Assembly: GCA_030648055.1 (NCBI GenBank)
Contig: JAUSHI010000007.1
Span: forward strand, 1-47,620
Direction: 5' to 3'
DNA length: 47,620 bases
From: a bacterium
Lineage (GTDB): Bacteria > Patescibacteriota > Minisyncoccia > Sungbacterales > SURF-37
The notes under the pieces were generated by a model. The model was not told the DNA's origin and searched no databases. It saw nothing but the letters and a program-made list of their open reading frames with translations. Position 1 is the stretch's first letter, and each line of letters begins with the position of its first letter. Position numbers and translations under genes: made by a program. Below, one piece after another: positions 24,352 to 46,100 of this stretch.

Positions 24352-24385
24352 AGCCAACTAACAAGCGACCGCTTGCTAGTTGGCT
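24352..24385 (+). repeat. AAGCGACCGCTT palindrome copy 1 (variant arms)
   Basis: AGCCAACTAACAAGCG-AC-CGCTTGCTAGTTGGCT. Confidence 0.85.
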
Positions 24386-24438
24386 CTTTCCAAATGAACA
24401 TAAAATAGCGAGGGTAAACACCGCTTTCTATTGCGGGG

Positions 24439-24467
24439 TAGACAAAAAAACCAAAGAGCTGTATACT
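24439..24467 (+). promoter_or_regulatory. promoter upstream of rny leader
   Basis: TAGACA-17 nt-TATACT. Confidence 0.55.
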
Positions 24468-24699
24468 TAGGTATAATTTATTGTAATTGAGTCATAATCC
24501 GCCTTTTGGGGCAAAAACCCAAAACAAGCTAAAGATTTAAACTTAAGCGGGAAACCACGATTTCTAGTAAAGTCACCTATTAAGAACGATTAGAACCCAC
24601 ACTACTACTAAATGTCTTTCAACTTTTTAAAGAATTTAGAAATATATGTGAAGATGGACCGAAAGGTCTTCGGTAATTTGGCGTTCGCGTTGTCTCTTT

Positions 24700-24748
24700 A
24701 ACCCCTCGACGGGCTCGGGGTTAGTCCTTAGCGAAATCGAAGGGCTAA
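24700..24748. repeat. REP-like double hairpin in rny leader
   Basis: AACCCCTCGACGGGCTCGGGGTT followed by AGTCCTTAGCGAAATCGAAGGGCT. Confidence 0.5.
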
Positions 24749-24789
24749 ACAAAGCTTCCTAAAAATCTCATACTTCCCGCTGTTAAAAT

Positions 24790-26316
24790 ATGTCAACAGC
24801 TATTTTTCTATTTATTGTTCTCTCGCTTGGCGCCGGAATAGGCATCGGCTACATTATCCGCCAGCTTATAGCGCAAAAGCGCAAAAACTCAATTGAGGCC
24901 AGACTCAAAAAACTGGTTGAGGACGCAAAGCGCGAAGCGCAGGAAGTCACCCTTGAATCAAAAAATAAGGCGGTAAAAATTCTTGAGGAAGCCCAAAAAG
25001 AATCCAGAACCCTGACCGACGACCTTAGAAAGGCAGAAAGCCGCGTGAGATCGCGCGAAGAAGTACTGGATAAAAGGTTTTTTGAACTTGATGAGCGTCA
25101 AAAAGAACTTGAAACCAAAGTTGAGCGCGTTAAAAGCGTAAAAACCGAAATTGAAATACTGAAAGAAGAGGCCTCTAAAAAACTGGAAACTGTGGCCGGA
25201 ATGACCAGAGAAGACGCCAAAACCGCGCTTATTAAGAATATGGAAAAGGAATCAGGCGAAGACATGATGGTCCGCCTGCGCAAACTTGAAACCAGCGGCC
25301 TTGAGGAACTGGAAAGAAAAGCCAAAGACATCCTTGCCTCAATAATTCAGCGCCTCGCCACAAGCACCACTTCTGAAGTAACCACGACTTCGGTCAACAT
25401 CACCTCGGACGACCTCAAGGGAAAAATTATTGGACGCGAAGGAAGAAATATCCGCGCTTTTGAACGCGCGGCGGGCGTTGAAATCATAGTTGATGATACG
25501 CCGGGTGCCATAATTATTTCCGGCTTTGATCCGGTACGTCGGCACATCGCGAAGCTCGCGATGGAAAATTTGATTGCCGATGGGAGAATACAACCGGCGC
25601 GCATTGAAGAGTTCGTAGAAAAAGCCAAAATAGACATAGACAAGCAAATCCGTGAGGCAGGCAAAGCCGCGGCGTATGAAATCGGCGCTTTTGATATTGA
25701 TGAACGGCTTTTGAACCTCATCGGCCGCCTTAAATTCCGGACCAGTTACGGACAAAACGTGCTTCTCCACTCGGTAGAAATGGCCCATATTGCCGGAATG
25801 CTTGCCGAAGAACTCGGCGCGGACAAAGCCATCGCCCAGAAAGGAGCGCTCATCCACGACATCGGCAAAGCCGTTGACCACGAAGTGCAAGGCACCCATG
25901 TAGAAATCGGAAGAAAAATTCTGCAAAAATTCGCGGTTGATAACCGCCTCATCCAAGCCATGCAATCGCACCACGAGGAATATCCATACGAAACTCTTGA
26001 ATCAATTATAGTGCAGGTCGCTGATGCCGTATCCGCCTCGCGGCCCGGAGCCCGCCGAGACAGTGTTGAAAACTATTTGAAGCGCCTGCAAGATCTTGAA
26101 GCCATAGCCAACTCTTTTGACGGCGTTGAAAAGTCATACGCCATTCAAGCCGGACGCGAAATACGCGTGTTCGTAACGCCTGAAAAGATAGGCGACATGG
26201 AAGCAAGAAACCTGGCGCGCCAAATCGCTTTAAGAGTTGAAAATGAATTGAAATATCCGGGTGAAATTAAAGTACACGTCATAAGAGAAACGAGAGTGAT
26301 TGATTTTGCCAGGTAG
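24790..26316 (+). CDS. rny: ribonuclease Y
   Basis: N-terminal TM, coiled coil, KH KGKIIGREGRNIR, HD domain LIHDIGK, FRTSYGQNVL. Confidence 0.98.
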   Translation: MSTAIFLFIVLSLGAGIGIGYIIRQLIAQKRKNSIEARLKKLVEDAKREAQEVTLESKNKAVKILEEAQKESRTLTDDLRKAESRVRSREEVLDKRFFELDERQKELETKVERVKSVKTEIEILKEEASKKLETVAGMTREDAKTALIKNMEKESGEDMMVRLRKLETSGLEELERKAKDILASIIQRLATSTTSEVTTTSVNITSDDLKGKIIGREGRNIRAFERAAGVEIIVDDTPGAIIISGFDPVRRHIAKLAMENLIADGRIQPARIEEFVEKAKIDIDKQIREAGKAAAYEIGAFDIDERLLNLIGRLKFRTSYGQNVLLHSVEMAHIAGMLAEELGADKAIAQKGALIHDIGKAVDHEVQGTHVEIGRKILQKFAVDNRLIQAMQSHHEEYPYETLESIIVQVADAVSASRPGARRDSVENYLKRLQDLEAIANSFDGVEKSYAIQAGREIRVFVTPEKIGDMEARNLARQIALRVENELKYPGEIKVHVIRETRVIDFAR

Positions 26317-26356
26317 AAAAAATAAGTAGGCAAAATAAACAAACAAGTAGCCAAAT

Positions 26357-26402
26357 CAAAAGTTCCAAATAAAAAGCGACCGCTTGCTATTTGGAACTTT
26401 TG
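26357..26402 (+). repeat. AAGCGACCGCTT palindrome copy 2
   Basis: CAAAAGTTCCAAATAAAAAGCG-AC-CGCTTGCTATTTGGAACTTTTG. Confidence 0.9.
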
Positions 26403-26423
26403 AAAAACGAACCGAATCAACAC

Positions 26424-28145
26424 ATGACTCAATCTCAAGCACTATCAATCTTGCAGACTGGCGCGAATGTTTTTTTAACCGGCGAACCCGGATCCGGCAA
26501 AACGCATACGATTAACGAATATGTGGCATATTTGCGCGCACGGGGCATTGAGTCGGCAATAACGGCTTCAACCGGTATTGCCGCTACGCACATAGGCGGA
26601 ATGACCATTCACTCGTGGAGCGGCATAGGAATTAAAACGAAGCTGGATAAATATGAACTTGATGCAATAGCATCGCGAGAATATGTCACAAAGCGCGTCC
26701 GACGCACCAAAATCCTTATAATAGACGAAGTATCAATGCTTCCCCCCGAAACACTCTCCATGGTTGATGCAGTATGCCGCGAAATCAAACAAAATACGGA
26801 GCCTTTCGGGGGTATTCAGATCGTTTTGGTCGGTGACTTTTTCCAACTGCCACCGATTATGAAAATAGAAACGAAAAACAGCCGGCAAACCGCGCTCATT
26901 GAAGAATCGTCTGACCGTTTTGCGTATGATTCTCCCGCGTGGAAGCGAACAAGCCCGGTTATCTGTTATCTTGCCGAACAGTATCGCCAAGACGACAATA
27001 ATTTTCTTGCCGTGCTCTCGGCAATTCGGCACAATGTCTTTGGCGATGATCACTTACGCCATATTAAAACTAGAAAAATTGAGGCCCATACCGCGCCTAA
27101 CGGCGCGCCGAAACTTTTTTCTCACAATGCCGACGTGGATCGCATTAATAACGAAATATTCGCCAAACTTTCTAGCGAGCCGCATTCATTTGCCATGTCA
27201 TCACAGGGCCCAAGCATGCTCACCGCAACACTTAAGAGAGGTTGCCTTTCGCCCGAGGCACTTCATCTTAAGGTCGGAGCGGCAGTGATGTTCACAAAAA
27301 ACAATCCAAAAGAGGGCTTTGTAAACGGCACACTTGGCACTATTGAAGGATTTAATAAATATAGCAGTTACCCAATCGTTAAGACCAGAAGCGGAGTGCA
27401 AATTGAAGTTGAGCCAATGGACTGGATGATGGAAGAGGGTGGCAAGATTCACGCACGAATAACGCAACTGCCACTTCGCCTTGCTTGGGCGATTACAGTG
27501 CACAAGAGCCAAGGAATGAGCTTAGACGCGGCGGTGATGGATTTAAGCGACACGTTTGAATTCGGTCAGGGCTATGTCGCGCTCTCGCGCGTCAGGCGAC
27601 TTTCCGGCCTGTATCTTCTCGGCTGGAATGAACTCGCGTTTCAAGTGCACCCGGAAATATTGGCCAAAGACGAAGCGTTTCGCTCGGCCTCGGGCGACGC
27701 CGAAACGGTTTTTGGGAAAATTCCGCCGACTGAACTTGATAAAATGCACAAAAATTTCATCATTGCGTGTGGAGGGAATATTATTAAATTAGCCGGCATT
27801 GACACAAAAAATTGCCCCATCTACGAAAAGACGGAAGAGAATCTTGATACATATAACAAAACCCATGCGCTCTGGAACGAGGGAAAAACCATTTTGCAGA
27901 TCGCTGAAATACGCGGATTGAAAGAGCGGACCATTTTAAGTCACGTCGAGGAGCTTGTTAAAAAAAGGAAAATTAGCCCTGCCGATATTTTAGGCCTTGT
28001 AACGCCCGCGCTCTCTAATGCGCTTCCTAAAATCCATACCGCGTTTAGAGAACTTGGCACCGATAAATTATGGCCTGTTTTTGAAAAATTTAATGGCGCT
28101 TATTCATACGACGATCTCCGAATAGCCCGAATGATGCTCAACTAA
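26424..28145 (+). CDS. PIF1-like SF1B DNA helicase with C-terminal HTH
   Basis: GEPGSGKT, IIDEVSM, LVGDFFQLPP, HKSQGMSLD, GQGYVALSR; C-terminal QIAEIRGLKERTILSH; start ATG 26424. Confidence 0.9.
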   Translation: MTQSQALSILQTGANVFLTGEPGSGKTHTINEYVAYLRARGIESAITASTGIAATHIGGMTIHSWSGIGIKTKLDKYELDAIASREYVTKRVRRTKILIIDEVSMLPPETLSMVDAVCREIKQNTEPFGGIQIVLVGDFFQLPPIMKIETKNSRQTALIEESSDRFAYDSPAWKRTSPVICYLAEQYRQDDNNFLAVLSAIRHNVFGDDHLRHIKTRKIEAHTAPNGAPKLFSHNADVDRINNEIFAKLSSEPHSFAMSSQGPSMLTATLKRGCLSPEALHLKVGAAVMFTKNNPKEGFVNGTLGTIEGFNKYSSYPIVKTRSGVQIEVEPMDWMMEEGGKIHARITQLPLRLAWAITVHKSQGMSLDAAVMDLSDTFEFGQGYVALSRVRRLSGLYLLGWNELAFQVHPEILAKDEAFRSASGDAETVFGKIPPTELDKMHKNFIIACGGNIIKLAGIDTKNCPIYEKTEENLDTYNKTHALWNEGKTILQIAEIRGLKERTILSHVEELVKKRKISPADILGLVTPALSNALPKIHTAFRELGTDKLWPVFEKFNGAYSYDDLRIARMMLN

Positions 28146-28192
28146 CAATTAGCATGAAGAACAAAAAGAAAATAAAACAAACAGCCAAACCA

Positions 28193-28234
28193 AAAGTTCC
28201 AAATAACAAGCGACCGCTTGTTATTTGGAACTTT
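28193..28234 (+). repeat. AAGCGACCGCTT palindrome copy 3
   Basis: perfect 20-bp arms AAAGTTCCAAATAACAAGCG-AC-CGCTTGTTATTTGGAACTTT. Confidence 0.95.
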
Positions 28235-28252
28235 CAATAAACGAATAACTAC

Positions 28253-29047
28253 ATGAAAATACTTTTTTTCGGCGATGTATTCGGCCGACCCGGGCGCGAA
28301 GCGCTCGCAAAAATAATCCCCGAGTGGAAAGCGAAGTATTCGCCCGATATTATCATTGCCAATGCTGAAAATATTTCACACGGTGCCGGGATTTCTGAAA
28401 ATTCAATTCGCGAAGTTCGCGAAGCGGGAATTGACATAATGACCGGCGGAAACCACAGCTTGGAAGGAAAAAACGCCGCCGAACTTTTAAATAATCACGA
28501 AATACCGATTGTAAGACCGGAAAATCTTGCCAAAGGTTCTCCGGGCCGTGGATTTAAATATTTTGAAATTAACAATAAAAACTTGCTTGTAATCAATCTC
28601 ATCGGCCAGGTGCATATGCGCCAAAACTACGATTCGCCGTGGACCGCGGCCGACCGCATCCTCAAACAAAACGAAGCCGGAGAAAATGCAAAACACATAA
28701 TAGTTGACTGGCACGCCGATGTAACCGCGGAAAAAATAGCAATGGGGTGGTATTTAGACGGCAAAGTTTCAGCGGTTCTCGGAACGCATTCGCACACCCC
28801 AACGGCGGACGAACGCATTCTTCCCAAAAGAACAGCTTTTATTTCTGATGTCGGCATGACCGGCGCTCATTATTCAATTATCGGCCAAGAAATAGAAACA
28901 AATCTTAAGCGATACCGCACCAATTCCCCTGTTAGAGTTGACGTAGCGTCAGCGCCGCCCTACGAAACAAACGCAGTTCTCATTGAGCTTGATGATGAAA
29001 ACGGCAGAGCTACAAAAATTGAACGATTACGCAAAATTTTAGAATAA
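28253..29047 (+). CDS. ymdB: YmdB family metallophosphoesterase
   Basis: MKILFFGDVFGRPG, ANAEN, TGGNH, DWHADVTAEK, GTHSHTPTADERIL, SDVGMTG. Confidence 0.92.
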   Translation: MKILFFGDVFGRPGREALAKIIPEWKAKYSPDIIIANAENISHGAGISENSIREVREAGIDIMTGGNHSLEGKNAAELLNNHEIPIVRPENLAKGSPGRGFKYFEINNKNLLVINLIGQVHMRQNYDSPWTAADRILKQNEAGENAKHIIVDWHADVTAEKIAMGWYLDGKVSAVLGTHSHTPTADERILPKRTAFISDVGMTGAHYSIIGQEIETNLKRYRTNSPVRVDVASAPPYETNAVLIELDDENGRATKIERLRKILE

Positions 29048-29077
29048 CCCCGCGCTAATTTTGCGAGGACTTACAAA

Positions 29078-29228
29078 GCGAAGCGCTTCGCCCATAACGG
29101 AATGGGCCTATTCGGCCCCCGCGCTTCGCGAAAATTTTGTTATTTTGCTCCGTAAAAGCTTCATTTTCAAAACATGGCAAAATTAATGCGGGGTCTTCGC
29201 TTTTCTAACTGCTCGCAAAACACTCGCA
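29078..29228 (+). repeat. structured repeat element, copy B
   Basis: 52-nt nested hairpin 29078-29129 and motif 29209-29228 match 5107-5335 on the minus strand. Confidence 0.65.
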
Positions 29229-29325
29229 TAGAAAAGCGAGATATCCAGCGTTTACGCGAAATTTTAGAATGATTTCCAAAACAACCGCACAAACTGCGGT
29301 TGTTTAAATGGTGTGCATAAAAAAA

Positions 29326-29354
29326 TTGAGTAAACAAGCAAGTTTAGCTATACT
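29326..29354 (+). promoter_or_regulatory. hup promoter
   Basis: TTGAGT-17 nt-TATACT. Confidence 0.55.
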
Positions 29355-29438
29355 CAAGACGTGTGGAAAACTCGTGAAAACGGTTTTTCAAAATAAAAAG
29401 GTCGTATAAATTAATGTGAATTTTCTCTTAATAACTTT

Positions 29439-29723
29439 ATGGCAATGAAATACGACAAAAAATGGCTTGCGGAATGGCTCATGAACAAACTCGGAACCAC
29501 CAAAAAAGCGGCACAAGAGGCGGTGGAAGAAATGTTCGGTGAAATCGCGAAAGCCATGGTCAAGGGTGAGCAAGTCAAAATCGCGGGATTCGGCGTATTC
29601 CGAGTGGCGCGACGTGCGGCACGCGAAGGCATCAACCCGAGAACACAGGAAAAAATACAAATCGCCGCGAAAGTTGCGCCGAAATTCCGCGCAGCAAAGC
29701 AGTTGAAGGAAATGGTACAGTAA
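29439..29723 (+). CDS. hup: DNA-binding protein HU
   Basis: GEQVKIAGFGVF..RAAREGINPRTQEKIQIAA..PKFRAAKQLKE. Confidence 0.95.
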   Translation: MAMKYDKKWLAEWLMNKLGTTKKAAQEAVEEMFGEIAKAMVKGEQVKIAGFGVFRVARRAAREGINPRTQEKIQIAAKVAPKFRAAKQLKEMVQ

Positions 29724-29803
29724 AAGCAGTGCTTTTATTCCGCCTATGGCGGGATTACTGCTTCAGCAGTCATTGTTTTCGCGCAAAAACAATATTTTGA
29801 AAT

Positions 29804-29838
29804 AAAAAACAGCCCCGCTGTAAGTGGGACTGTTTTTT
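29804..29838 (+). terminator. hup terminator
   Basis: AAAAAACAGCCCCGC..GTGGGACTGTTTTTT. Confidence 0.75.
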
Positions 29839-29851
29839 GTTTTGTCTCTAT

Positions 29852-29886
29852 AAAATAAAAAGCCCAGACACTTATGTCCGGGGCTT
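29852..29886 (-). terminator. PBP terminator
   Basis: AAGCCCAGACA/TGTCCGGGGCTT hairpin with A tract to the left. Confidence 0.6.
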
Positions 29887-29887
29887 G

Positions 29888-32074
29888 TTAATAACCGTCC
29901 CGATCTTCCGGCGTTTCCGGTTCGGCCACTTCTTCGGATTTTAACTGCTCCTTAAGATATTCTTTAGACATTACAAAGGGCTTTAAGGGATTTGTCGCCT
30001 CGGGAAAAGTTTCTTTTTCCCTATCCTGATAAATAGCTCTCATTACGGCAATAAAAACCGGTAATGCGTTCTTTCCACCTGATTCTTTGTACCCGAGCGG
30101 CAGTTTTTTGTCCCTGCCGACCCAAACGCCCATGCAATATGAAGGCGAACATCCGATAAACCAGTTATCAGTGGCCTCACCCGCATTGTTCGTCGCGGTT
30201 CCAGTTTTGCCAAACACTTGGAACTCCAAAACTTTGGCCTGTGTTCCGGTTCCGTGCGGCAGTTCAACCGTACCGCGAAGGCCTCTTACAATCTGCAAAT
30301 ATGTTCTTTCGTCGCACACTAATTCCGGATTTTTCGCGGTGTGCCATTCAACCGGCTCGCCTTTTGAATTCTTAATCCCTTCAATAAAGTATTCCTTTAC
30401 CTTTTTGCATCCCCGCGCGTATGTAGCGAACGCGCGTGTCATCTCAAGAAGCGTTACTTCGGTGGAACCGATAGGCGTAGTCAGCGACGGGTCAATTTTG
30501 CTCTCAATACCTATTCTTTTAGCGAACTCGTCCAATTCTCCGACTATTTTAATTCTCCAGAATGGAGGAACTGGGGAGCCCTTAATTCCAGAAACCGCAC
30601 TCACGGTGGCCGCGTTCCTTGATTCAGTCAAAGCAATCTGTGGCGAAATAAAGCCACGATAGCGCGGAATGCCCTCATACGGGAAGTTTTGAATGGCATG
30701 CGGTAGCTTTCCGCGCCCCATTGGGACACGAAGACCGACTTTCGGATTTTCAATAGGCCGCGGCTCAATGTCATAAAGGGTGCAGGGACCGCTACCCTCA
30801 TCGTCACAACCAAGACGCCATCCGCGCTCCAAAAGCTTCCCATAGAAAATGCCCTTAAAAGCAGAACCGATCTGGCGCTTTGCCTGGCTGATGAGGTCAT
30901 ACTCGTTTTCGCTGAATTCCGGCACCTCAACCCATGCCAATATTCCGCCGGCTAACACGTCAATAACCACAGCAGCACCCCGGATGTCTCCGGACAAATC
31001 GGAATTGCGCTCAATTAATTTCTTAATTGAGTCGCGAAGAGCATCCTCGGCAATTTTTTGAACTCTCATATCAAGAGTAGTGTAGGTTTTAAGGCCACCC
31101 TTCCAAATCTCTTCAGTGGTATAGCGCTTAGTGAGTTCTCTTCGCACGAGCTCCGCGAAATGCGGCGAGAATTCGCGGCAAGCCGTCGGACGATTTACGC
31201 CTAGAGGTTTTTCCTTCAACACTTCCGCTTCTTCAGGATCAACCATTTTGGAATCAACAAGCTGTTGAATAACTCTATTTCTCAATTCTTTTGCTTTCTT
31301 GAGGTTTTGGAACGGAGAAGAGTAATAAGGAGAACGGATTAGGCCGGCAAGAAGAGCGGCCTCACTAAGATTAAGCTCTGTCGGAGACTTGCCAAAATAC
31401 GACATTGATGCCTCGGCAACGCCGTAGCGCTCTCCAAAATAAACATGATTCAAATAAATCTCAAGAACGCGCTCACGGCCAAGAATTTTCTCCAGACGAT
31501 AAGCGATGTAAGTCTCGCGAATTTTACGGGTATATTTCGCATATGTTTTTCTCATTTTCAACGAAGTAATCTTCGTTTTCTGCCAAAAACGAGCCCGCCT
31601 TGTGTATTTTTCCTTGAGCGCATTCGTTTCATCTTTTATCCTTGAAGCCCAAAAATCTTCCTGGCGCCTTTCTTCCTGAAGATACACGAGCCTGGAGAGC
31701 TGTTGTGAAATGGTTGAACCACCTTTGCCCTGCCACACAGCCACCACCGAGCGCTCCATATCAATCGGACCCCAGCGCGAATAAAAATGCTTGTCTTCCG
31801 CGGCAATCACGACGCTTGATAAAAGTCCGCCAACTTCTTTCAACGGAATTACCGTTCTTCGCTCTACCGCGAAACAAAGGATTGAATTCCCCTGGTTATC
31901 AAACACCCAGCTTGTCTCTGCCGGCCGATAATTCGTAAGAAGAGAAGTATCAACGATACCAAAAAGACCTGGGTTTAGAAGTAAAACCGTGCCCGCGAAA
32001 ATTATCACAACAAGCAAAAACGATAAGACTACATATGAGAAAATCTTGCGTTTTCGCCCCATTACTAACCTCAC
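29888..32074 (-). CDS. class A penicillin-binding protein (PBP1A family)
   Basis: TM; transglycosylase AEDKHF, GGSTISQQL, RKIRE; transpeptidase SAFK, SRN, KTG. Confidence 0.92.
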   Translation of the reverse strand: MRLVMGRKRKIFSYVVLSFLLVVIIFAGTVLLLNPGLFGIVDTSLLTNYRPAETSWVFDNQGNSILCFAVERRTVIPLKEVGGLLSSVVIAAEDKHFYSRWGPIDMERSVVAVWQGKGGSTISQQLSRLVYLQEERRQEDFWASRIKDETNALKEKYTRRARFWQKTKITSLKMRKTYAKYTRKIRETYIAYRLEKILGRERVLEIYLNHVYFGERYGVAEASMSYFGKSPTELNLSEAALLAGLIRSPYYSSPFQNLKKAKELRNRVIQQLVDSKMVDPEEAEVLKEKPLGVNRPTACREFSPHFAELVRRELTKRYTTEEIWKGGLKTYTTLDMRVQKIAEDALRDSIKKLIERNSDLSGDIRGAAVVIDVLAGGILAWVEVPEFSENEYDLISQAKRQIGSAFKGIFYGKLLERGWRLGCDDEGSGPCTLYDIEPRPIENPKVGLRVPMGRGKLPHAIQNFPYEGIPRYRGFISPQIALTESRNAATVSAVSGIKGSPVPPFWRIKIVGELDEFAKRIGIESKIDPSLTTPIGSTEVTLLEMTRAFATYARGCKKVKEYFIEGIKNSKGEPVEWHTAKNPELVCDERTYLQIVRGLRGTVELPHGTGTQAKVLEFQVFGKTGTATNNAGEATDNWFIGCSPSYCMGVWVGRDKKLPLGYKESGGKNALPVFIAVMRAIYQDREKETFPEATNPLKPFVMSKEYLKEQLKSEEVAEPETPEDRDGY

Positions 32075-32201
32075 CCTTATTAAGCTTTCAAAGACCTTAC
32101 TCTAAGAAGTACCGCTAAATACGGGCTAAGTCAAAACTCCGCGTAAATTTTGATTATAGCAAACTTGCGCGGCAAAATAACTTAATAAACACTTTTTAAA
32201 A

Positions 32202-32230
32202 TTGACAGTTCTTAAGTTTAGTGCTATACA
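32202..32230 (+). promoter_or_regulatory. promoter
   Basis: TTGACA-17 nt-TATACA with TGn. Confidence 0.5.
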
Positions 32231-32280
32231 AACACTGCGGAAAGTTTTAAATGTTCTTTAAAAATTGGGGGGTAGAAAAC

Positions 32281-33309: not shown

Positions 33310-33345
33310 TTTTGCCCTCCCTTATTTTTAAAATGAACCAAATCA

Positions 33346-38284: not shown

Positions 38285-38298
38285 CCATCCCGAGCACT

Positions 38299-38330
38299 AA
38301 AAATCCCCGCTTCCGCGGGGATTTTGTTTT
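38299..38330. terminator. bidirectional terminator gpmI/hsp20
   Basis: AAAATCCCCGC-TTCC-GCGGGGATTTT. Confidence 0.85.
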
Positions 38331-38336
38331 GCAATC

Positions 38337-38963: not shown

Positions 38964-39018
38964 AATATTTAAAACTTATAAGCTAACAAACAAATTTAAC
39001 GGCGATAAATTAAAATAA

Positions 39019-39762
39019 TCAGTCACAATCGGCGGGATTATCCTTCTTTAAGCGCTCAAACTCAATGAATACGACGAACGCCATCATAAAAAGCAGAAAA
39101 ATCAATAAATTCAAAAACTGCGGTACGGCCTCTTTTATTATAATAAAATAGTTGAAAAAAGCGTGCAATACTGAAGCAAGTATAACACCTATGAAGATAA
39201 AATGCTTCCTATGCGGACGAAAATATGAATGGGCGAGGAAATAACCGACAATTCCGGAAGAAAGCGCGTGAAGCAGATTCGCGCCGATGAATCTATTGGC
39301 ATTAAGCATCACTCCTGACGCAAAATCAGCATGGAAAAGGGGTAAGGCAAAAAGAACATTTTCTATCGCGGCAAAACCCAGGGCGGCGGTCATCATATAA
39401 ATCATAGCGTCAATCGGCTCATCAAATTCCGAGCGCCCGATAATCAGCCCTTTCACGGCTAAGTATTTCAAATATTCCTCCACAACAGCTATCACCAAAA
39501 AAATCATAAACACATTGCCGAATATGTTCGGGAAAAAATCCGTCAAAAATCCTCCGCGCGCTAAACGGATATCCCCCAGAAGAAAAAGTTCAACGACAAT
39601 TGAAAGAAGAGCCGCACCTATGCCACCTAAAAAAACGGCGATAAGCAAATGTTTGGGCTCGGGATGCCTGCGATCTTCCCGTAAATAAAATATCAGCCAC
39701 AAAAGAGGCGGCAAAAAGCTTATAAATACGTAACCGGTGTAGGCAGATATAATGGCGGCCAT
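39019..39762 (-). CDS. prsW: PrsW family intramembrane metalloprotease
   Basis: multi-TM; VVEEYLK, FAAIEN, LLHA, LHAFFN. Confidence 0.85.
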   Translation of the reverse strand: MAAIISAYTGYVFISFLPPLLWLIFYLREDRRHPEPKHLLIAVFLGGIGAALLSIVVELFLLGDIRLARGGFLTDFFPNIFGNVFMIFLVIAVVEEYLKYLAVKGLIIGRSEFDEPIDAMIYMMTAALGFAAIENVLFALPLFHADFASGVMLNANRFIGANLLHALSSGIVGYFLAHSYFRPHRKHFIFIGVILASVLHAFFNYFIIIKEAVPQFLNLLIFLLFMMAFVVFIEFERLKKDNPADCD

Positions 39763-39764
39763 AA

Positions 39765-42074
39765 TTATTTAATCACGGGCCACTCCTCAACCATGAGAAG
39801 TTTTTTATTTTTTATCGGCAAGTGCGACCAAATTTCCTCAGTAACAAAAGGCATGAAAGGATGAAGCAGTTTCAATAATATTTCAAGAGTGTAGGCGAGC
39901 GTTTCTTTCACGCCATCGTCTTCTTTTGTTTTTGAATATTCTATATATTTGTCGGCAAAATCATGCCAAGCGAACTCATATATAGTATGGAGCGCCTGTC
40001 CGAAATCAAATTTTTCAATATCTTCATTGGCCGAATTAAAGGTTTCTTTTAATCTTTCAAGTAATTCATGGCTTTCTTTATCATCACCTGACGGAGCCAC
40101 CGATCCCGCGCCCACCTTTCCGCCTGTTTTAGTAATAACAAACCGCGTTATATTCCAAAGCTTATTCGCGAATTTCTTGCCAGCTAGCACATGCTCTTCC
40201 GACCAGCGAATATCTTGAGTCCCCATAGCCTGCCAGATAATGCCAAAACGAGTAGCATCTGCGCCATATTTTTCAATCAGCGTCATGGGGTCAATGCCTG
40301 TGCCAAGCGACTTGGACATGCGTTTGCCGTCTTTCGTAAGAATGGTGGCATGTATTATTACATCCTTAAAAGGCGGCTCTTTCATAAACTCCATTCCGGA
40401 AAAAATCATGCGGCTAACCCATAAATTAATAATATCACGGGCAGTTGAAAGCACGTCGGTTGGATAAAACATATTTAAATCCTCCGTTTTATCGGGCCAG
40501 CCCAATGTCGCAAACGGCCAAAGCGCTGAAGAAAACCAGGTGTCCAACACATCTAAATCCTGAACAAACTTTGCATTGCAAAACTCGCACTTTGGTTCTT
40601 CCGCGGAAACAATAAATTCAAAACACTTTGCAACATCGGCCTCATGGTCTTTCCGTGGTTCGCACTTCGGCTCATGAAACCAAACAGGAATCCTGTGCCC
40701 CCACCAAATTTGCCGCGAAATCGTCCAGTCACGAACATGACGAAGCCATTCAAGATACGACTCATTCCATCGCTCCGGATGAAATTTTACTTTTCCGTTT
40801 TCTACGGCACCCATCGCGAGTTTCGCAAGCTCTCCCATTTTCAAAAACCACTGCAAACTCGGAATCGGCTCAATTGTCGCCCCGCAACGATAACAAACCG
40901 CGACATTGTGCGTGTATTTCTCTTCTTTTTCCAACAATCCTGCTTTTTTCAACTCTTCCACTACCTTACCTCTGCACTCGCTGGCTTTAAGCCCCTCGCA
41001 AATCACTCCCGCTTTTTTAGTCATCTTTCCATATTTATTAATCACAGTATGGCGCGGAAGATTGTGCCGCTCGGCGATATCGGCGTCCAGCAAATCATGC
41101 GACGGAGTTACTTTTACAGCACCGGTGCCGAATTCTTTCTCCACCGAATCATCAGCAACAATAGGAATTTCGCGATTTTGAATAGGTAAAAGGACTTTTT
41201 CGCCAACATATTTCTTAAAACGCTCGTCATTAATGTTAACCGCCACCGCCGTGTCTCCGAGCATCGTTTCGGGCCGCGTTGTTGCGACAGTGATGGCTTT
41301 GAATTTGTTTGGATCAAACTCATATAATCCACCAGTTACAGATTTTATAAGAGGCCATTTTTCCCGTAGTTTAACAATTGCTTCTTTGTTTTCCTGCAAT
41401 ATTAAGGGATAGCGGATGTAATAAAGAGTTGCCTCCTCTTCCTTATATTCAATCTCCAAATCCGAAAGGCTTGTCTGGTCCTTCGGGCACCAATTGATGA
41501 CGCGTTCCGCACGATAAATCCATCCTTTTTCGTAATAATGCAAAAATGCCGCCTCCACTGCCTTCCGATATCCTTCATCCATGGTAAAGCGGGTCCGCGA
41601 CCAATCCATAGAAGAGCCGAGCTTTTTGAACTGCTCAAGAATGATATTTCCGTATTTCTCTTTCCATTCCCAGACGCGCTCAATAAATTTTTCGCGGACG
41701 AGGTCGTGGCGATTCTTTCCTTCTTTCTTTAATTCTTTCTCAACGACATTCTGCGTCGCAATACCGGCGTGGTCCGTGCCCGGAAGCCAAAGCGTTTTAT
41801 AACCCTCCATTCTTTTTTTGCGGATTAAAATATCCTGAATAGCCGCGTTCAACGCGTGCCCGAGATGCAAAGAGCCGGTAACATTCGGCGGGGGAACGAC
41901 GATAGTAAAAGCTTTTTTGCGATTATCAATCTGTCCGGCCGATGGCGAGGGAAGTTTGTCAGGGTTAAAAAAACCCGACTCCTCCCAGAGGCGGTAAATT
42001 TTGTCTTCAGTTGCCTTCGGATCGTATTGTGGCGGCAATTCTTGCTGTTTTTCTGAATTTTTCTGCGTTGACAT
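39765..42074 (-). CDS. valS: valine--tRNA ligase (short form, no C-terminal coiled coil)
   Basis: PPPNVTGSLHLGHA, DHAGIATQ, DWTISRQIWWGHRIP, RMSKSLG; start ATG 42074. Confidence 0.97.
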   Translation of the reverse strand: MSTQKNSEKQQELPPQYDPKATEDKIYRLWEESGFFNPDKLPSPSAGQIDNRKKAFTIVVPPPNVTGSLHLGHALNAAIQDILIRKKRMEGYKTLWLPGTDHAGIATQNVVEKELKKEGKNRHDLVREKFIERVWEWKEKYGNIILEQFKKLGSSMDWSRTRFTMDEGYRKAVEAAFLHYYEKGWIYRAERVINWCPKDQTSLSDLEIEYKEEEATLYYIRYPLILQENKEAIVKLREKWPLIKSVTGGLYEFDPNKFKAITVATTRPETMLGDTAVAVNINDERFKKYVGEKVLLPIQNREIPIVADDSVEKEFGTGAVKVTPSHDLLDADIAERHNLPRHTVINKYGKMTKKAGVICEGLKASECRGKVVEELKKAGLLEKEEKYTHNVAVCYRCGATIEPIPSLQWFLKMGELAKLAMGAVENGKVKFHPERWNESYLEWLRHVRDWTISRQIWWGHRIPVWFHEPKCEPRKDHEADVAKCFEFIVSAEEPKCEFCNAKFVQDLDVLDTWFSSALWPFATLGWPDKTEDLNMFYPTDVLSTARDIINLWVSRMIFSGMEFMKEPPFKDVIIHATILTKDGKRMSKSLGTGIDPMTLIEKYGADATRFGIIWQAMGTQDIRWSEEHVLAGKKFANKLWNITRFVITKTGGKVGAGSVAPSGDDKESHELLERLKETFNSANEDIEKFDFGQALHTIYEFAWHDFADKYIEYSKTKEDDGVKETLAYTLEILLKLLHPFMPFVTEEIWSHLPIKNKKLLMVEEWPVIK

Positions 42075-42162
42075 GACCAAACTAAATTGCTACTTATTAT
42101 GTTACATGGTGCGATTATCGCACAAAATCTGCTGTTTGAAAACTAAAATAAAGGAGGAAGTC

Positions 42163-43890
42163 ATGCCAAGAATTTCATCTGTCGCTTTTAAAGGCAATAG
42201 TGCTCCGCATCTGCTTGCCGACGGCCGACATTATTCCGAATCTGCCGAGCGTATGCCTGTACGAAATCCGGCAACCGGCGCCGTAATCGGCAACATGTCG
42301 GTTCTATTACCCAACTCACACGCCGTGGAAGACCTCGCACATTGGGCGCATATTGCCCAAGAGTGCTGGCACTGGGAAGTACAGGAGCAGGAAAAAGAAG
42401 TGGTCTTCCGCAGTATTATCAAAAAACTAGAAGAGCATATGGGGCCGCTCGCGCGGACTATGACGCTTGAAAGCGGAAAACTTTGGAAATGGGCTATCGC
42501 CGAAGCGCAAGAAGCGATTGATACGCTCTGGCACTATCACGGCGAAATCTCGCGCGCATATACTCATGACGGTTTCACAAGATGCCAACTTCCCGATAAA
42601 AATGCCTTTTCGCTGAGAATTCCTTACGGTAAAATACTCAAGATTTCGCCGTGGAACTTTCCGCTGGCCGTTCCGATGTGGGCGGTATGCGGAGCGCTTG
42701 CCGGCGGCAATTCCATTGTTCTGAAGCCGGCCGAGCAAACGCCTTTCACTATGTATTATGTCGCATGCCTGATTCATGAAGCTATTAACGAGACCATAAG
42801 CGATGAACGCATGTTCAAGCTGGCAGGTCTTCTACAAATCGTGCAAGGGCCGGGCGAGACAAATGGCAAAACCCTTCTTGAAGAGTTTGATTATGACAAG
42901 GCCACTTTCACCGGCAGCGGAAACGTCGGCAAGATCGTCGCCTCAATTGCCGGAGGCCGCCTGAAACCGTGCCACTTGGAACTTGGAGGGCATGCGGCTA
43001 TGGTTGTGTTAGACGATTTTGACATTGACCTTGCGGTTGCCGAAGCCATCGCCGCAAATCTCGGCGACTCGGGACAGCGATGCGTCTCAGCCCGCGTCGT
43101 CTTCGTACAAAAATCCCGCTACAAGGAATTCCTTGCCAAATATCTGGAACACGCTCAAGCGCGCCGTATTGGCCACCCCATGGATTTCAAAACGGAAATG
43201 GGGCCGCTTATTTCAAAGGAGCAGTTGGCGCGTGTGGATGAAATGGTTTGCACGACCGCGGAACAAATCGGCAAACTGCCGCTTCTTGGCGGCTATCCGC
43301 TGATAAGCAAAGAAGGCACACCACGGTGCGAAGCACTAAATGTTGATGAAGACGCGATCAGCCGCGGCGGCTACTACTACGCGCCGACGGTTTTCGCCGA
43401 AGTGCCGTATGGCGTTACCGCGATGGACGAAGAAATATTCGGCCCGGTAATCGTCATCAACCCGCTGGAAGGCGATACAAGAGAGCAGGCGTTCTGGAAC
43501 GCGGTGGAACTCGTAAATGCTTCCCACTACGGACTTTCCAATGCGCTCCTTACCAACGATCGCCGGTTCTCCTCACGCGCACCCGGCAGGTTCAAGACCG
43601 GCCTTCTCTATATCGGCCGCGGACCTGCCGGAGCCGAAGTCAACAAATATTTCGGGGGTGTGAAGGCTTCGGGCTGGGGCCGCGAAGGCAAGGGCTTGGA
43701 TGCCTGGACGCAAATCCAACAGGTCACCGACGACTTTCACGGCAAAGCGCGCATGGCGCAATCCGGCGCCGAAGCGCAAATGAAAGCGGTATTTTCGGCA
43801 GAGAGATCACCGCTGGAAGATATTAAAAACCCAAATGCTGAGCTATATGGAATAGGAAAAAAGAAAGGAGAAAGACGTGAAAAGAAATAA
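42163..43890 (+). CDS. aldehyde dehydrogenase family protein
   Basis: AAGGAGG RBS, ATG 42163; PWNFP, KPAEQTP, FTGS, HLELGG, GQRC, EEIFGPV. Confidence 0.92.
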   Translation: MPRISSVAFKGNSAPHLLADGRHYSESAERMPVRNPATGAVIGNMSVLLPNSHAVEDLAHWAHIAQECWHWEVQEQEKEVVFRSIIKKLEEHMGPLARTMTLESGKLWKWAIAEAQEAIDTLWHYHGEISRAYTHDGFTRCQLPDKNAFSLRIPYGKILKISPWNFPLAVPMWAVCGALAGGNSIVLKPAEQTPFTMYYVACLIHEAINETISDERMFKLAGLLQIVQGPGETNGKTLLEEFDYDKATFTGSGNVGKIVASIAGGRLKPCHLELGGHAAMVVLDDFDIDLAVAEAIAANLGDSGQRCVSARVVFVQKSRYKEFLAKYLEHAQARRIGHPMDFKTEMGPLISKEQLARVDEMVCTTAEQIGKLPLLGGYPLISKEGTPRCEALNVDEDAISRGGYYYAPTVFAEVPYGVTAMDEEIFGPVIVINPLEGDTREQAFWNAVELVNASHYGLSNALLTNDRRFSSRAPGRFKTGLLYIGRGPAGAEVNKYFGGVKASGWGREGKGLDAWTQIQQVTDDFHGKARMAQSGAEAQMKAVFSAERSPLEDIKNPNAELYGIGKKKGERREKK

Positions 43891-44028
43891 GAAGAAATAT
43901 ATTGCGAGCACTATAAGAGAACTTTTCTCAGGTAAACTCGACGGAGGTCTGCCTCTTATCAGTCGTGAATGCTCGCATTGCGGCAGACCATGCAATTGCA
44001 CGCAGGGCAAACGATAAACCGATAATTT

Positions 44029-44070
44029 AAAAAACAAACCCCGAGACTGACTCGGGGATTTTTTATTTTT
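44029..44070. terminator. terminator between ALDH and tsaD
   Basis: CCCCGAG/CTCGGGG stem flanked by A and T tracts. Confidence 0.7.
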
Positions 44071-44089
44071 AGGTTTTAAAAAAAATTTC

Positions 44090-45295
44090 TTATTGCCACG
44101 AAAGCCGCAAGTTCGCTTCGGCGCGCACTTTTTTCCACGGCGTTTTGTCACCCGAAAAATATCCGGCAAGCGCGATCATTAAAGCGTTGTCTCCGGTTAA
44201 ATGGCGGGAGGGGAGATACAACTCCAAATTAGGAATGTTATTTTTAACCGCGGCTACAAGTGTTTCACGCAATTTTGTGTTTGCCGCGACACCACCTCCA
44301 AGAATCACACTTTTTACTCTATATTTTTTCGCGGCACGAATCGTTTTGACTACAAGCACTTCAACAACCGCATCCTGAAATTCTTTCGCGATTAACGGCC
44401 GAAGTTCTGCAAGAGAATATTTCTTCTCTAAATCACGAAGCAAATAAAGTGTCGCGGTTTTAAGGCCGGAAAAAGAAAAATCAAAATCACCGGAATTTAT
44501 CATCGGACGCGGAAGTTTGATTTTTATTTTTTTGTTTTGTTTCACGTTCTCTGCAAGCCGCGAAACAATCGGCCCGCCCGGATAACCGAGCTTCATCATC
44601 TTGGCTACTTTATCAAACGCTTCTCCAGCGGCGTCGTCACGTGTCTCGCCGATAATTTTATAATTGCCAAATTTCTTCATTAAAACTAACTCTGTGTGCC
44701 CCCCACTAACTATGAGTGCCAGTGTTGGCAGTTTCATTGTACGCAAATGAAACCCGTGTTTCTGAATTTGCGTTTCACCAAGCATTACAGTATACACGTG
44801 CCCCTCCAGATGGTTAACGGGAGTAACCGGCTTATTCCATATATATGAAAGAGCTCGCGCGAAATTAACGCCCGCCCAAAGCGCGGGCTCAAGACCGGGA
44901 CCAACCGTTACGGCAAGCGCGTCAATTTGCGGAGGCACGATTTTCGGAATTTCTTTTAAAAACCTCTTGATTAGTTCAGCCTCGCGTTCAAAAATTTCAT
45001 GCAGGATTCTAATTTGTAACGAAGAAAATTTTTGCTCTGTTTTTTGTTTTTTCGCGTGAAACAATTTAGCTTCTTTCAGCGCACTTTTTAAAACGGGCAC
45101 GAGATTTTTCTGGTGTTCCCGCTTTGCCAAATTCGGAACCACTCCACCGAATTTCCGATGAATAGGAACCTGTGACAACACAACATTGGACAAAATTTTA
45201 ATATCAGCCGCTTGCACCGAGCGTTTTAACGGACTCATTTCAATAACCGCAACCGCGGTTTCGTCGCAACTTGTCTCTATTCCTAAAATAACCAT
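44090..45295 (-). CDS. tsaD: tRNA N6-adenosine threonylcarbamoyltransferase
   Basis: LGIETSCDET, PVNHLEGH, LIVSGGHT, DDAAGEAFDK, FSFSGLK, GGVAAN, TGDNALMI. Confidence 0.97.
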   Translation of the reverse strand: MVILGIETSCDETAVAVIEMSPLKRSVQAADIKILSNVVLSQVPIHRKFGGVVPNLAKREHQKNLVPVLKSALKEAKLFHAKKQKTEQKFSSLQIRILHEIFEREAELIKRFLKEIPKIVPPQIDALAVTVGPGLEPALWAGVNFARALSYIWNKPVTPVNHLEGHVYTVMLGETQIQKHGFHLRTMKLPTLALIVSGGHTELVLMKKFGNYKIIGETRDDAAGEAFDKVAKMMKLGYPGGPIVSRLAENVKQNKKIKIKLPRPMINSGDFDFSFSGLKTATLYLLRDLEKKYSLAELRPLIAKEFQDAVVEVLVVKTIRAAKKYRVKSVILGGGVAANTKLRETLVAAVKNNIPNLELYLPSRHLTGDNALMIALAGYFSGDKTPWKKVRAEANLRLSWQ

Positions 45296-45317
45296 CGCTT
45301 TCCTTTGATAAGTTATC

Positions 45318-45398
45318 GAGCAAAATTACTACTGCCGAATCCTGCCCCGTACTAAAACTAAGTTTTTGGTTCGGAGTCTCTATTCCCAAGATTCGCAT
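45318..45398 (-). pseudogene. relic duplicate of a tsaD 5' end interrupted by a palindrome
   Basis: MRILGIET-[PNQKLSFSTGQ]-DSAVVILL vs tsaD MVILGIETSCDETAVAVI. Confidence 0.55.
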
Positions 45399-45442
45399 AT
45401 AATCAAACTTAAAACGAAAACCACTAATTTCTTTAGTTCCAT

Positions 45443-45484
45443 AATCTTCCAAATAGCAAGCGACCGCTTGTTATTTGGAAGATT
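45443..45484 (+). repeat. AAGCGACCGCTT palindrome copy 4
   Basis: AATCTTCCAAATAGCAAGCG-AC-CGCTTGTTATTTGGAAGATT (one G-T pair). Confidence 0.95.
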
Positions 45485-45485
45485 T

Positions 45486-46037
45486 CTAAATAAGCTGGAA
45501 TTTCTTCTTCAAATGAAGCTCATTATCAATATGAAACGCTTCTATAAAACGCACATAGCGGCGCACATCATATAATTCTATAACAAAATCAATCTCTTTC
45601 TTGCACTCATAAGGATGAACAAACACGCTCTTTTGCAACTCCTGCAACCCGAGCTGCCGCAATTTTATTCGCAAAACATCGCGCAATCTTTTTTGCGTTT
45701 CAGGAATATCAAAAAGAATAACACGCCATTTTTGATCCCACCGCGACGGCTTCGGTATCTTCATGTCATCAAACTTATAGCGTAACGCTGTTTTTTGTCC
45801 TTCTCTGTTAAGAACGACAGAAACAGTACCATCCTTATTTTCTTTATAAGATACGAGCTTAGATTCATATAACCGCCGTATTGCTCGGTGTAGCTCCCGA
45901 TTGTCTATTTCTCGCCATTCCCGCGCAACCGCTTTCAAAACTCGTCTATAACGATCTGGTGGCCCTGACAAACTTAAGCCTACGCCTCCAAGCAAAAGAA
46001 GCAAAGTTTTTTGTGTAACAACCCCTAATGTCCGCAT
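45486..46037 (-). CDS. PaaX-like protein: wHTH plus Cas2/VapD-like domain
   Basis: LHRAIRRLYESKLV..LNREG wHTH; WDQKWRVILFDIPE..RDVLR..L..LG..LQKSVFV; start ATG 46037. Confidence 0.85.
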   Translation of the reverse strand: MRTLGVVTQKTLLLLLGGVGLSLSGPPDRYRRVLKAVAREWREIDNRELHRAIRRLYESKLVSYKENKDGTVSVVLNREGQKTALRYKFDDMKIPKPSRWDQKWRVILFDIPETQKRLRDVLRIKLRQLGLQELQKSVFVHPYECKKEIDFVIELYDVRRYVRFIEAFHIDNELHLKKKFQLI

Positions 46038-46056
46038 ATTAAAGTAGTATATTATT

Positions 46057-46100
46057 AAATGTTCCAAATAGAAAGCGACCGCTTTCTATTTGGAACATTT
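46057..46100 (+). repeat. AAGCGACCGCTT palindrome copy 5
   Basis: perfect 21-bp arms AAATGTTCCAAATAGAAAGCG-AC-CGCTTTCTATTTGGAACATTT. Confidence 0.95.

Follow-up and report, generated by a model that had tools for sequence, protein, structure and literature searches.

Palindromes bracketing the gene for a compact PaaX-like protein are candidate cognate sites in a Patescibacteria genome

PaaX (PDB 8a39, 3l09; TIGR02277), a repressor of E. coli and Pseudomonas that responds to phenylacetyl-CoA, is a protein of ~316 amino acids in which an N-terminal winged helix is followed by a Cas2-like domain (PaaX_M) and a C-terminal ligand-binding domain. In E. coli it binds TGATTC-N27-GAATCA, a palindromic operator spanning 39 bp, and represses its own promoter; its Cas2-like domain serves dimerization (PMC9493321). 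Within the 47,620-nt stretch of a Patescibacteria genome analyzed here (the window), a gene encodes a 183-amino-acid protein, mini-PaaX, that has the winged helix and the Cas2-like domain in the same order and is associated with palindromes of comparable span (40–44 bp). Unlike the PaaX operator, these putative sites are palindromic across their whole span and share an invariant core. Other differences include the absence of the ligand-binding domain and of nearby paa genes, the bracketing of the gene by two sites, and the presence in one tiny genome of several paralogs, each with a site family of its own. Moreover, the sites multiply, even into coding genes.

Features of the locus also recall other described systems. 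As in REP/RAYT systems (REPtrons, REPINs), the palindromes are dispersed, mainly intergenic and spread in a lineage-specific manner, a single-copy gene is flanked by the same palindromes, and the pairing of repeat and gene is family-specific. Mini-PaaX, however, combines a winged helix-turn-helix (wHTH) with a Cas2-like domain and is not a Y1/HUH IS200-like transposase; its palindromes number 9–14 per genome rather than hundreds, are longer and nearly perfect, and form new copies with duplicated flanks. Rickettsia palindromic elements (RPEs) are palindromic repeats that lie in frame within protein-coding genes without destroying them, and the insertions into gdh and miaA described below likewise leave these genes intact. 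RPEs differ in their length of 100–150 bp, and none is known to bracket a gene for a cognate protein. Integron attC sites and serine-recombinase sites, the latter perfect palindromes with an asymmetric 2-bp center by design, resemble our palindromes in their placement at gene borders, in the asymmetric center and in the presence of a helicase gene between co-oriented copies. They differ in that no integrase or resolvase was found here, orientation is unfixed, and the palindromes are perfect, have no extrahelical bases and form no array beside an integrase. We found no description of this arrangement of gene and palindromes in the literature searched.

A dispersed palindrome family

The window contains five exact matches to the 12-mer AAGCGACCGCTT, starting at 24363, 26374, 28208, 45458 and 46073, always on the plus strand. 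Chance would give 0.37 copies, and five or more were present in 0 of 100 shuffles. All five are centers of 34–46 bp palindromes (Table 1), in agreement with a preliminary description of the window that had reported five palindromes with a common core. That count proved incomplete for the genome: a search of all 614 kb (G000) found nine copies, five of them within one 22-kb cluster. With 9–14 copies per genome, the family is not an ordinary REP with hundreds of copies, and its resemblance to a CRISPR repeat is, as first described, only superficial, the copies being dispersed and accompanied by neither an array nor cas genes.

Table 1. Positions of palindromes, genes and repeats (window coordinates; entries prefixed C5 or C7 derive from the genome search)
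Feature	Position	Strand	Remarks
Palindrome copy 1	24348..24389 (palindrome 24352-24385, 34 bp; core 24363-24374)	.	one A.C mismatch; arm variant AGCCAACTAAC
rny (RNase Y)	24790..26316	+	between copies 1 and 2
~80-bp direct repeat, left copy	26332..26411	+	flank, palindrome 2, flank; borders helicase gene
Palindrome copy 2	26356..26402	.	rny–helicase spacer; two mismatches, both beside core
Pif1/RecD-like SF1B helicase, C-terminal HTH_40	26424..28145	+	lineage-specific insertion between rny and ymdB
~80-bp direct repeat, right copy	28170..28245	+	flank, palindrome 3, flank; borders helicase gene
Palindrome copy 3	28193..28234	.	42 bp, perfect; helicase–ymdB spacer, ymdB ATG 19 bp on
ymdB	28253..29047	+	directly adjoins rny in 9/9 relatives having it
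tsaD	44090..45295	-	module neighbor kept in G000 and G005
Palindrome copy 4	45443..45484	.	42 bp, one G.T mismatch; downstream element of mini-PaaX bracket
mini-PaaX gene	45486..46037	-	183 aa; N-terminal winged helix and Cas2-like PaaX_M, without PaaX_C
Palindrome copy 5	46057..46100	.	44 bp, perfect; upstream element of mini-PaaX bracket
tRNA (Glu by synteny with G005)	46315..46388	+	module's conserved neighbor on the other side
Further G000 copy	C5:107393-107436	+	genome search
Further G000 copy	C5:205460-205499	-	genome search
Further G000 copy, degenerate	around C5:205349	-	genome search
Further G000 copy	around C7:34192	-	genome search

The copies lie at various distances from genes. Copy 1 is 30 bp past a classical terminator (24297-24320) and ~405 bp ahead of the rny start, and copy 2 is 41 bp past the rny stop, its right arm ending 24 bp before the helicase ATG. 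Copy 4 is 2 bp past the mini-PaaX stop codon, with the tsaD start 148 bp downstream, while copy 5 has the mini-PaaX ATG 20 bp downstream and a divergent tRNA-Glu on its facing side. The copy at C5:107393 separates two convergent genes and has their terminators on its two sides. Taking G000 together with a relative from another genus (G005), a site ends 14–25 bp before a start codon in eight cases. No convincing sigma-70 promoters overlap the sites.

Co-orientation, which the preliminary description had emphasized, is complete in the window (5/5 on the plus strand) but is not a rule, since bracketing pairs in G005 occur in both the same and opposite relative orientation. A rule tied to the replication strand was likewise dropped: the AC center is oriented alike relative to local GC skew in 8/9 G000 copies, a bias that is not significant because copies 2 and 3 are duplicates, and the ratio in relatives is 10:10.

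The compensatory arm changes first noted in the window hold as DNA symmetry. Arms match at 177/216 positions; shuffling the right arms from site to site gives 160 ± 4.9, and 0 of 5000 shuffles reach 177. After removal of the duplicate and the degenerate copy the observed value is reached in 16/5000. The three bases beside the core are frequently asymmetric. Symmetry within sites exceeds what the consensus of the family accounts for, which points beyond protein contacts to template-switch correction or to the formation of hairpins or cruciforms. Template-switch correction of quasi-palindromes could yield such symmetry without any enzyme. The supposed wobble in the arms is inconsistent between strands: each of the three imperfect copies forms its weaker RNA hairpin on the sense strand, with A.C instead of G.U.

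Mini-PaaX and its paired palindromes

Residues 108–181 of mini-PaaX score 77.1 bits with Pfam PaaX_M (PF20803), whose cut-off is 24. In its AlphaFold model (pLDDT 87), residues 6–76 form three helices and a beta wing, and a Foldseek search with the model returned E. coli PaaX (8a39, E 2.5e-5) as the top PDB match, with Cas2 structures next. The fold search was needed for this, as a PDB search by sequence alone gave marginal matches only. Profiles of wHTH proteins match weakly, and in sequence the winged helix weakly resembles AspA, a centromere-binding protein (E 0.008). Together, the PaaX_M match, the predicted wHTH and Cas2-like fold and the PaaX repressor as closest structure assign mini-PaaX to a DNA-binding type of protein. 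It scores 26.3 bits against the PaaX equivalog TIGR02277 (cut-off 264.55), and PaaX_C, the C-terminal helical ligand-binding domain, has no match in the chain, which ends at residue 183. Against the Cas2 model TIGR01573 it reaches 22.1 bits, under the cut-off of 24.5. D110, the Asp within the Cas2 beta-1 motif ILFDIPE, does not vary among 39 homologues. We rejected a role as Cas2 of CRISPR adaptation because of the TIGR01573 score, repeats that lie kilobases apart, and neighbors that are tsaD and a tRNA. PaaX and Cas2, the labels given by domain matches, are wrong as functional names for these genes.

The module tsaD–palindrome–gene–palindrome–tRNA-Glu is also present in G005, where TsaD is 61% identical and the bracketed protein is 74% identical to mini-PaaX. 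The bracketing sites are 614 bp apart in G005 and 615 bp apart in G000; their core is identical and their arms differ between the two modules (ATACAACTAA versus GTTCCAAATAG). Two additional paralogs in G005 each have their own flanking palindrome (AAATGTTCATTATTTC-core; CCAAACTTACCAGCGATCGCTGG). G000 encodes at least four additional mini-PaaX paralogs, and at least three of these adjoin private palindrome families with centers GCTATAGC, ACGATCGT and GACCGATCGGTC, each dispersed in 3–6 copies. Matching palindromes occur on both sides of 13/79 homologous genes, compared with 1/727 control frames in the same loci.

Among the homologues, the C-terminal domain is the more conserved part of the protein, and the core is common to the closest ones. 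Distant members, at 40–48% identity, also have GCGACCGC centers, so that an assignment of protein domains to parts of the site is not possible. One dispersed site has kept its position in both genera, at the ftsQ 3' end ahead of a structured RNA locus. Beyond the module itself and this ftsQ/ncRNA site, the sites of G000 and G005 showed no overlap. An order-wide search added nothing to the search of relatives because the order has only 62 genomes.

Operators and other readings of the sites

We consider it reasonably likely, with a probability of roughly 60%, that the nine-copy palindromes are cognate DNA-binding sites of the mini-PaaX encoded between copies 4 and 5. Of the two functions first proposed for the palindromes, that of operators for the PaaX/Cas2-like protein has the stronger support: the gene is bracketed, the bracket is orthologous between genera and specific to the family, and paralogs have private palindromes, from which we infer binding. 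The DNA-binding fold, the precedent of E. coli PaaX, the site kept at the ftsQ 3' end in both genera and the eight sites shortly ahead of start codons also speak for this reading. The 40–44 bp geometry and the location 20 bp before the ATG are compatible with an autorepressing operator of the PaaX type. Mini-PaaX would dimerize through its Cas2-like domain, as PaaX does, and its two winged helices would occupy the outer arms (GTTCCAAATA ... TATTTGGAAC) while the dimer interface covers the invariant core; this arrangement would explain the 40–44 bp span. Copy 5, just ahead of the start codon, would mediate autorepression. Copy 4, 615 bp away at the stop codon, may cooperate with it through looping or control the next gene, tsaD. 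The remaining copies may have arisen by local duplications that carry flanks and by insertions of the site, and those that landed 19–24 bp before start codons (helicase, ymdB) may bring these genes under the same control. Idle copies probably exist as well, among them the one between two terminators.

Several observations count against operators, among them the excess arm symmetry described above and the absence of a convincing sigma-70 promoter over the sites. The copy between terminators and two sites that lie in frame within coding genes of G005, gdh (+9 aa) and miaA, are in the wrong places for them, and mini-PaaX is without the ligand-binding domain of PaaX. The dispersed copies are mostly lineage-specific. 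In relatives, family palindromes are absent from both the rny and the helicase loci, and therefore no conserved regulon exists outside the module itself; a conserved regulon of nucleic-acid enzymes was accordingly rejected.

The other function proposed at the outset, recombination or integration sites of gene cassettes, is in our estimate highly improbable. Sites of integron, lox or serine-recombinase type would use the AC center as the crossover dinucleotide, and genes such as the helicase would enter and leave between co-oriented sites. The helicase, which is patchy, relocated and frequently fragmented in relatives, does separate rny from ymdB and is flanked by direct repeats holding co-oriented palindromes; uvrB of G005 also lies between sites, and an asymmetric 2-bp center in a perfect palindrome resembles serine-recombinase design. 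Yet the helicase is the one clear case of a variable gene bounded by co-oriented sites, a single case as basis. A search of the 85%-complete genome in all six frames, with positive controls, found neither serine nor tyrosine recombinases (PF00239, PF00589), and nine other loci with helicase homologues, in different contexts, contain none of these palindromes, which argues against a helicase that travels with them. Moreover, related families have symmetric centers (CGATCG, GCTATAGC), making asymmetry inessential, bracketing pairs take both relative orientations, and the stable regulator bracket has undergone no excision since the genera diverged. A metagenome scan for an empty rny–ymdB site gave two unrelated contigs only. 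The palindromes are probably not cassette recombination sites. We find it scarcely credible that they act at the RNA level, as bidirectional terminators or as mRNA-stabilizing or processing hairpins at gene junctions. Predicted hairpins are stable (-21 to -27 kcal/mol), several copies lie at gene ends or at intergenic junctions between co-directional genes, and copy 1 is flagged as terminator-like on the minus strand. Simple terminator function is nevertheless disfavored: classical GC-rich terminators with T runs adjoin copy 1 and flank the C5:107393 copy on either side, whereas the palindromes have AT-rich arms (34–38% GC in 4/5 window copies; 48% in copy 1) and no proper T tract, with no run of five or more T on the sense side. 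Copy 5 precedes a gene in a divergent region, some copies are within coding sequences, the sense hairpin is the weaker one in 3/3 imperfect copies, and no Rfam model matched. Very unlikely, too, are chromosome-organizing sites (parS-like, for loading or as boundaries) bound by mini-PaaX with no transcriptional role. Their scarcity, clustering (five in 22 kb) and intergenic location, the AspA similarity and the shared skew orientation of 8/9 G000 copies would suit such sites, but one 0.6-Mb genome harbors several paralogs that have private site families, a partner ATPase is absent nearby, relatives show no orientation bias, and sites keep a short fixed spacing to start codons.

The remaining possibilities concern how the sites spread. 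A selfish system of the REP/RAYT kind, in which the palindromes are mobile repeats propagated by a bracketed protein whose Cas2-like domain nicks or cuts hairpins or cruciforms, with regulation secondary or absent, is doubtful to us but deserves some weight. It would account for a gene flanked by its own repeats in REPtron fashion, for lineage-specific copies including the in-frame insertions in gdh and miaA, for the copy between two terminators and for the clustering of 5/9 copies within 22 kb; arm symmetry above that of shuffles and the invariant D110 are also in its favor. The symmetry, however, could come from enzyme-free template switching, and only 9–14 copies exist per genome. Both local duplications, the ~80-bp repeats around the helicase and the one at the ftsQ 3' end, carry non-palindromic flanks, which precise transposition explains less well than segmental duplication does. 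Across genera the bracket remains stable and syntenic, mini-PaaX falls under the Cas2 cut-off, and the homologous domain of PaaX serves dimerization (PMC9493321). A combined view, which we hold to be rather unlikely, is that mini-PaaX proteins of Patescibacteria are more than repressors, and that their Cas2-like domain nicks or cuts the center of the cognate palindrome, extruded as a cruciform or hairpin, driving duplication of the site and adjacent DNA. Action on the center would account for the in-frame insertions, the duplications that carry flanks, and the capture of entire genes, among them that of the Pif1-like helicase between rny and ymdB.

Implications for regulation in Patescibacteria

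To our knowledge, gene regulation in the ultra-small Patescibacteria is almost unexplored. The family described here consists of compact regulators, each of which marks its own putative binding site by bracketing its gene, and several pairs of regulator and site per genome can therefore be read directly from sequence. How protein and site drift can also be traced across genera. The repeat-like behavior of the sites, with in-frame insertions, duplications that carry flanks and one captured gene, raises the question of whether the Cas2-fold domain only dimerizes or acts on DNA as well. If it does act on DNA, mini-PaaX and its palindromes would be a new partnership of protein and repeat, an analogue of REP/RAYT built on the Cas2 fold, and would suggest that Cas2 may be linked in evolution to sequence-specific DNA handling.

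Palindromes in the window and across the genome

The window contains exactly five instances of the 12-mer AAGCGACCGCTT, all on the plus strand, against a chance mean of 0.37; none of 100 dinucleotide-preserving shuffles reached five. Sequence reading and an inverted-repeat scan place every one of these cores at the center of a long palindrome (see table) and, with the 12-mer count, bear out the coordinates and character that the preliminary description gave for the five. The family is larger than that account implied, with nine members, four of them outside the window, in the source genome G000 (614 kb, 85% complete, nine contigs), where the window is C2:1-47620. Its consensus is AAATGTTCCAAATAGC-AAGCGACCGCTT-GCTATTTGGAACATTT, and an arm variant, CCAACTAAC, is found in copy 1 and C5:205460. 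Co-orientation was also reported, and holds for 5/5 window copies. AC lies on the C-rich strand in eight of nine G000 copies, but relatives split 10:10, and pairs bracketing the same gene occur in both same and opposite relative orientation; the window pattern is therefore not a family property.

Palindrome copies and associated features in G000 (window coordinates unless a contig, C5-C9, is named; window gene identities from Pfam)
Feature	Position	Strand	Details
Copy 1	24352-24385	+	core start 24363; arms AGCCAACTAAC, one A.C mismatch
Copy 2	26356-26402	+	core start 26374; two mismatches adjoining core
Copy 3	28193-28234	+	core start 28208; 42 bp, perfect
Copy 4	45443-45484	+	core start 45458; one G.T mismatch
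Copy 5	46057-46100	+	core start 46073; 44 bp, perfect
Family copy	C5:107393-107436	+
Family copy	C5:205460-205499	-
Family copy	around C5:205349	-	degenerate
Family copy	around C7:34192	-
Classical terminator	24297-24320
Promoter-like site	24439-24467		TAGACA-17-TATACT
rny	24790-26316
Helicase	26424-28145		Pif1/RecD-like, with HTH_40
ymdB	28253-29047
Direct repeats (~80 bp)	26332-26411, 28170-28245		helicase-bordering spacers
tsaD	44090-45295	-
183-aa protein gene	45486-46037	-	PaaX_M (Cas2-like) domain
tRNA	46315-46388
CATTCTCAnATTCTTAAGAATnTGAGAATG family copies	C5:220449-221933; C7:674-7958; C7:57923; C8:5555; C9:82407

Copy 4 lies 2 bp past the stop codon of the 183-aa protein gene and copy 5 lies 20 bp ahead of its start. 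Copy 2 stops 24 bp short of the helicase start codon, and copy 3 stops 19 bp short of that of ymdB. Copy 1 sits after a classical terminator and before a promoter-like site, far upstream of rny; at C5:107393, where ftsZ and an unknown gene converge, the copy is flanked by their two classical terminators. The position of the promoter-like site, ~320 nt ahead of the rny start codon, suggests a long leader; Rfam gave no match for 24439-24790. Between tsaD and copy 4 are 148 bp (45296-45442) that fold weakly (-31 kcal/mol) and are absent from the orthologue in the sister genome G005 (same family, another genus), where the site is ~18 bp from the tsaD start; this stretch may be another inserted element.

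A mini-PaaX gene between matching palindromes

The PaaX_M assignment of the 183-aa protein is solid (77 bits, cut-off 24). Its AlphaFold model (pLDDT 87, built on 39 homologues) has a winged helix at residues 6-76 and, C-terminal to it, a ferredoxin-like domain, and Foldseek returns E. coli PaaX first (8a39, E 2.5e-5), then Rv0674 and many Cas2 structures. Because the PaaX C-terminal domain is absent and scores fall below cut-off for both the PaaX equivalog model (26 bits, cut-off 264) and the Cas2 model (22.1 bits, cut-off 24.5), we call it mini-PaaX, distinct from both genuine PaaX and Cas2. All 39 homologues keep D110 of the Cas2-like beta-1 motif ILFDIPE.

Across the order's 62 genomes the exact core is patchy, with seven matches in G000, 11 in G005, three in G038 and two in G010; seven further genomes have a single match each, four of these not convincing family palindromes. 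G005 repeats the window layout of tsaD, palindrome, gene, palindrome and tRNA-Glu(UUC). The bracketed gene is 74% identical to that for mini-PaaX, site centers are 614 bp apart (615 bp in the window), and the core is identical although the arms differ (ATACAACTAA versus GTTCCAAATAG). Of two additional G005 paralogs, one (69% identical) adjoins uvrB and has flanking palindromes with a AAATGTTCATTATTTC core; the palindromes flanking the other are CCAAACTTACCAGCGATCGCTGG. G000 has at least four further paralogs, at least three adjoining private families, centered on GCTATAGC (six copies), ACGATCGT (three copies) and GACCGATCGGTC (six copies). The preliminary description had proposed testing site co-occurrence with the PaaX/Cas2-like family. 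In 80 homologous loci from public genomes, under deliberately strict criteria and with crude start calls, 13 of 79 mini-PaaX genes had matching palindromes on both sides, versus 1 of 727 control reading frames from the same loci. Judged from sequence, protein and palindrome most likely belong together; the core of the case is the inherited, paralog-specific bracket and this contrast.

At C9:4074-5037 in G000, a truncated mini-PaaX paralog (C9:4697-4942) has four close palindromes with a GACCGATAGGTC center on its upstream side and, immediately past its downstream end, a different, ACGATCGT-centered palindrome; the module appears to be a hybrid or in decay. In G038, two reading frames (L012:3520-4026, L013:3349-4026) take as start codon the ATG of a palindromic AAATGTT and continue across the palindrome (MLQLTSGRLL...). 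Either the longest-ORF caller has misplaced these starts, or the gene start has been joined to a palindrome. In G005, a family palindrome occupies a divergent spacer adjoining a small putative GIY-YIG nuclease gene (L010:3549-3815; motif recognized by eye).

Spread of the copies

Dispersed copies are mostly lineage-specific: neither the rny loci of G005 and another relative, G004 (RNase Y 80-82% identical), nor nine helicase loci in relatives contain family palindromes. Palindromes lie in frame in G005 glutamate dehydrogenase (L003:3535-3575), nine residues longer than its G000 orthologue, and in a variable loop of G005 MiaA (L004:3985-4025); at the corresponding point (C9 ~41030-41110), G000 MiaA has an in-frame insertion of another kind, rich in hairpins. 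At C5:205281-205510 the ftsQ 3' end is tandemly duplicated with its palindrome, the second unit corresponding to the single G005 unit, and the direct repeats bordering the helicase reach past the palindrome on both sides. New copies here thus carry flanks, which looks like segmental duplication or recombination and not precise transposition. Both ftsQ-end palindromes directly precede a ~0.8-kb structured RNA locus, a position kept in G005 (L008:20-125). A larger, different family, CATTCTCAnATTCTTAAGAATnTGAGAATG, has at least 14 copies in G000, several clustered, and a similar palindrome occurs in G023 (L104:4136-4173). A gene cognate to this family was not identified.

Since ymdB directly follows rny in all nine relatives that have it (gaps of 45-190 bp, one of 939 bp) and the helicase separates them solely in G000, this gene has indeed been inserted there. 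Helicase homologues, in 9 of 25 genomes, are often split and each in a different neighborhood, which fits a roaming gene. None of the other 11 genomes in the family of G000 carries ymdB; it occurs in three further families of that order.

Candidate roles of the palindromes

The helicase insertion lends substance to the earlier idea of recombination sites, but a dedicated gene-cassette system is very improbable: a search of the 85%-complete G000 for serine and tyrosine (Xer-type) recombinase domains found neither (controls positive), the helicase travels elsewhere without palindromes, site orientation varies, and related families have symmetric centers such as CGATCG or GCTATAGC. One-off recombination between two ~80-bp units is enough to explain this locus. 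An RNA-level element deserves a small share of belief. Folded as RNA, the palindromes reach -21 to -27 kcal/mol, but in the three imperfect copies the sense hairpin is weaker than the antisense, because the mismatch is A.C on the sense and G.U on the antisense strand; moreover, copies occupy untranscribed or coding positions and Rfam returned no match for them. Arms agree within sites at 177 of 216 positions versus 160 +/- 4.9 in shuffles, beyond what a common consensus would account for, and at three sites the outer variants are symmetric and peculiar to the site (CTT/CTT, TAT/TAT, AG/AG). This suggests that extrusion is selected, that copies are born via a fold-back step, or that quasi-palindromes are corrected by template switching, a known mutational process; symmetry alone does not contradict duplex binding. 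We consider an enzyme-driven, REP-like system unlikely, and a chromosome-organizing role, like the cassette and RNA readings, less likely still.

We favor the operator reading already raised for the PaaX/Cas2-like protein, and give a probability of about 0.6 to the whole: five putative mini-PaaX sites, a bracket for autoregulation and extra copies by duplication. Besides the bracket evidence, it has a precedent in geometry. E. coli PaaX binds TGATTC-N27-GAATCA, spanning 39 bp, and impedes RNA polymerase at its own promoter, which is thereby repressed (PMC9493321); mini-PaaX palindromes are comparably long, at 40-44 bp. A mini-PaaX dimer formed via the Cas2-like domain could place its two winged helices on the outer arms, a geometry we infer to be compatible with this length. 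The arrangement, for which our literature search found no description, would be a variation on a known theme, that of PaaX-type repressors and their long palindromic operators. The bracket would probably serve autoregulation of mini-PaaX, and some of the extra copies, presumably arisen by duplication, may regulate the genes they precede.
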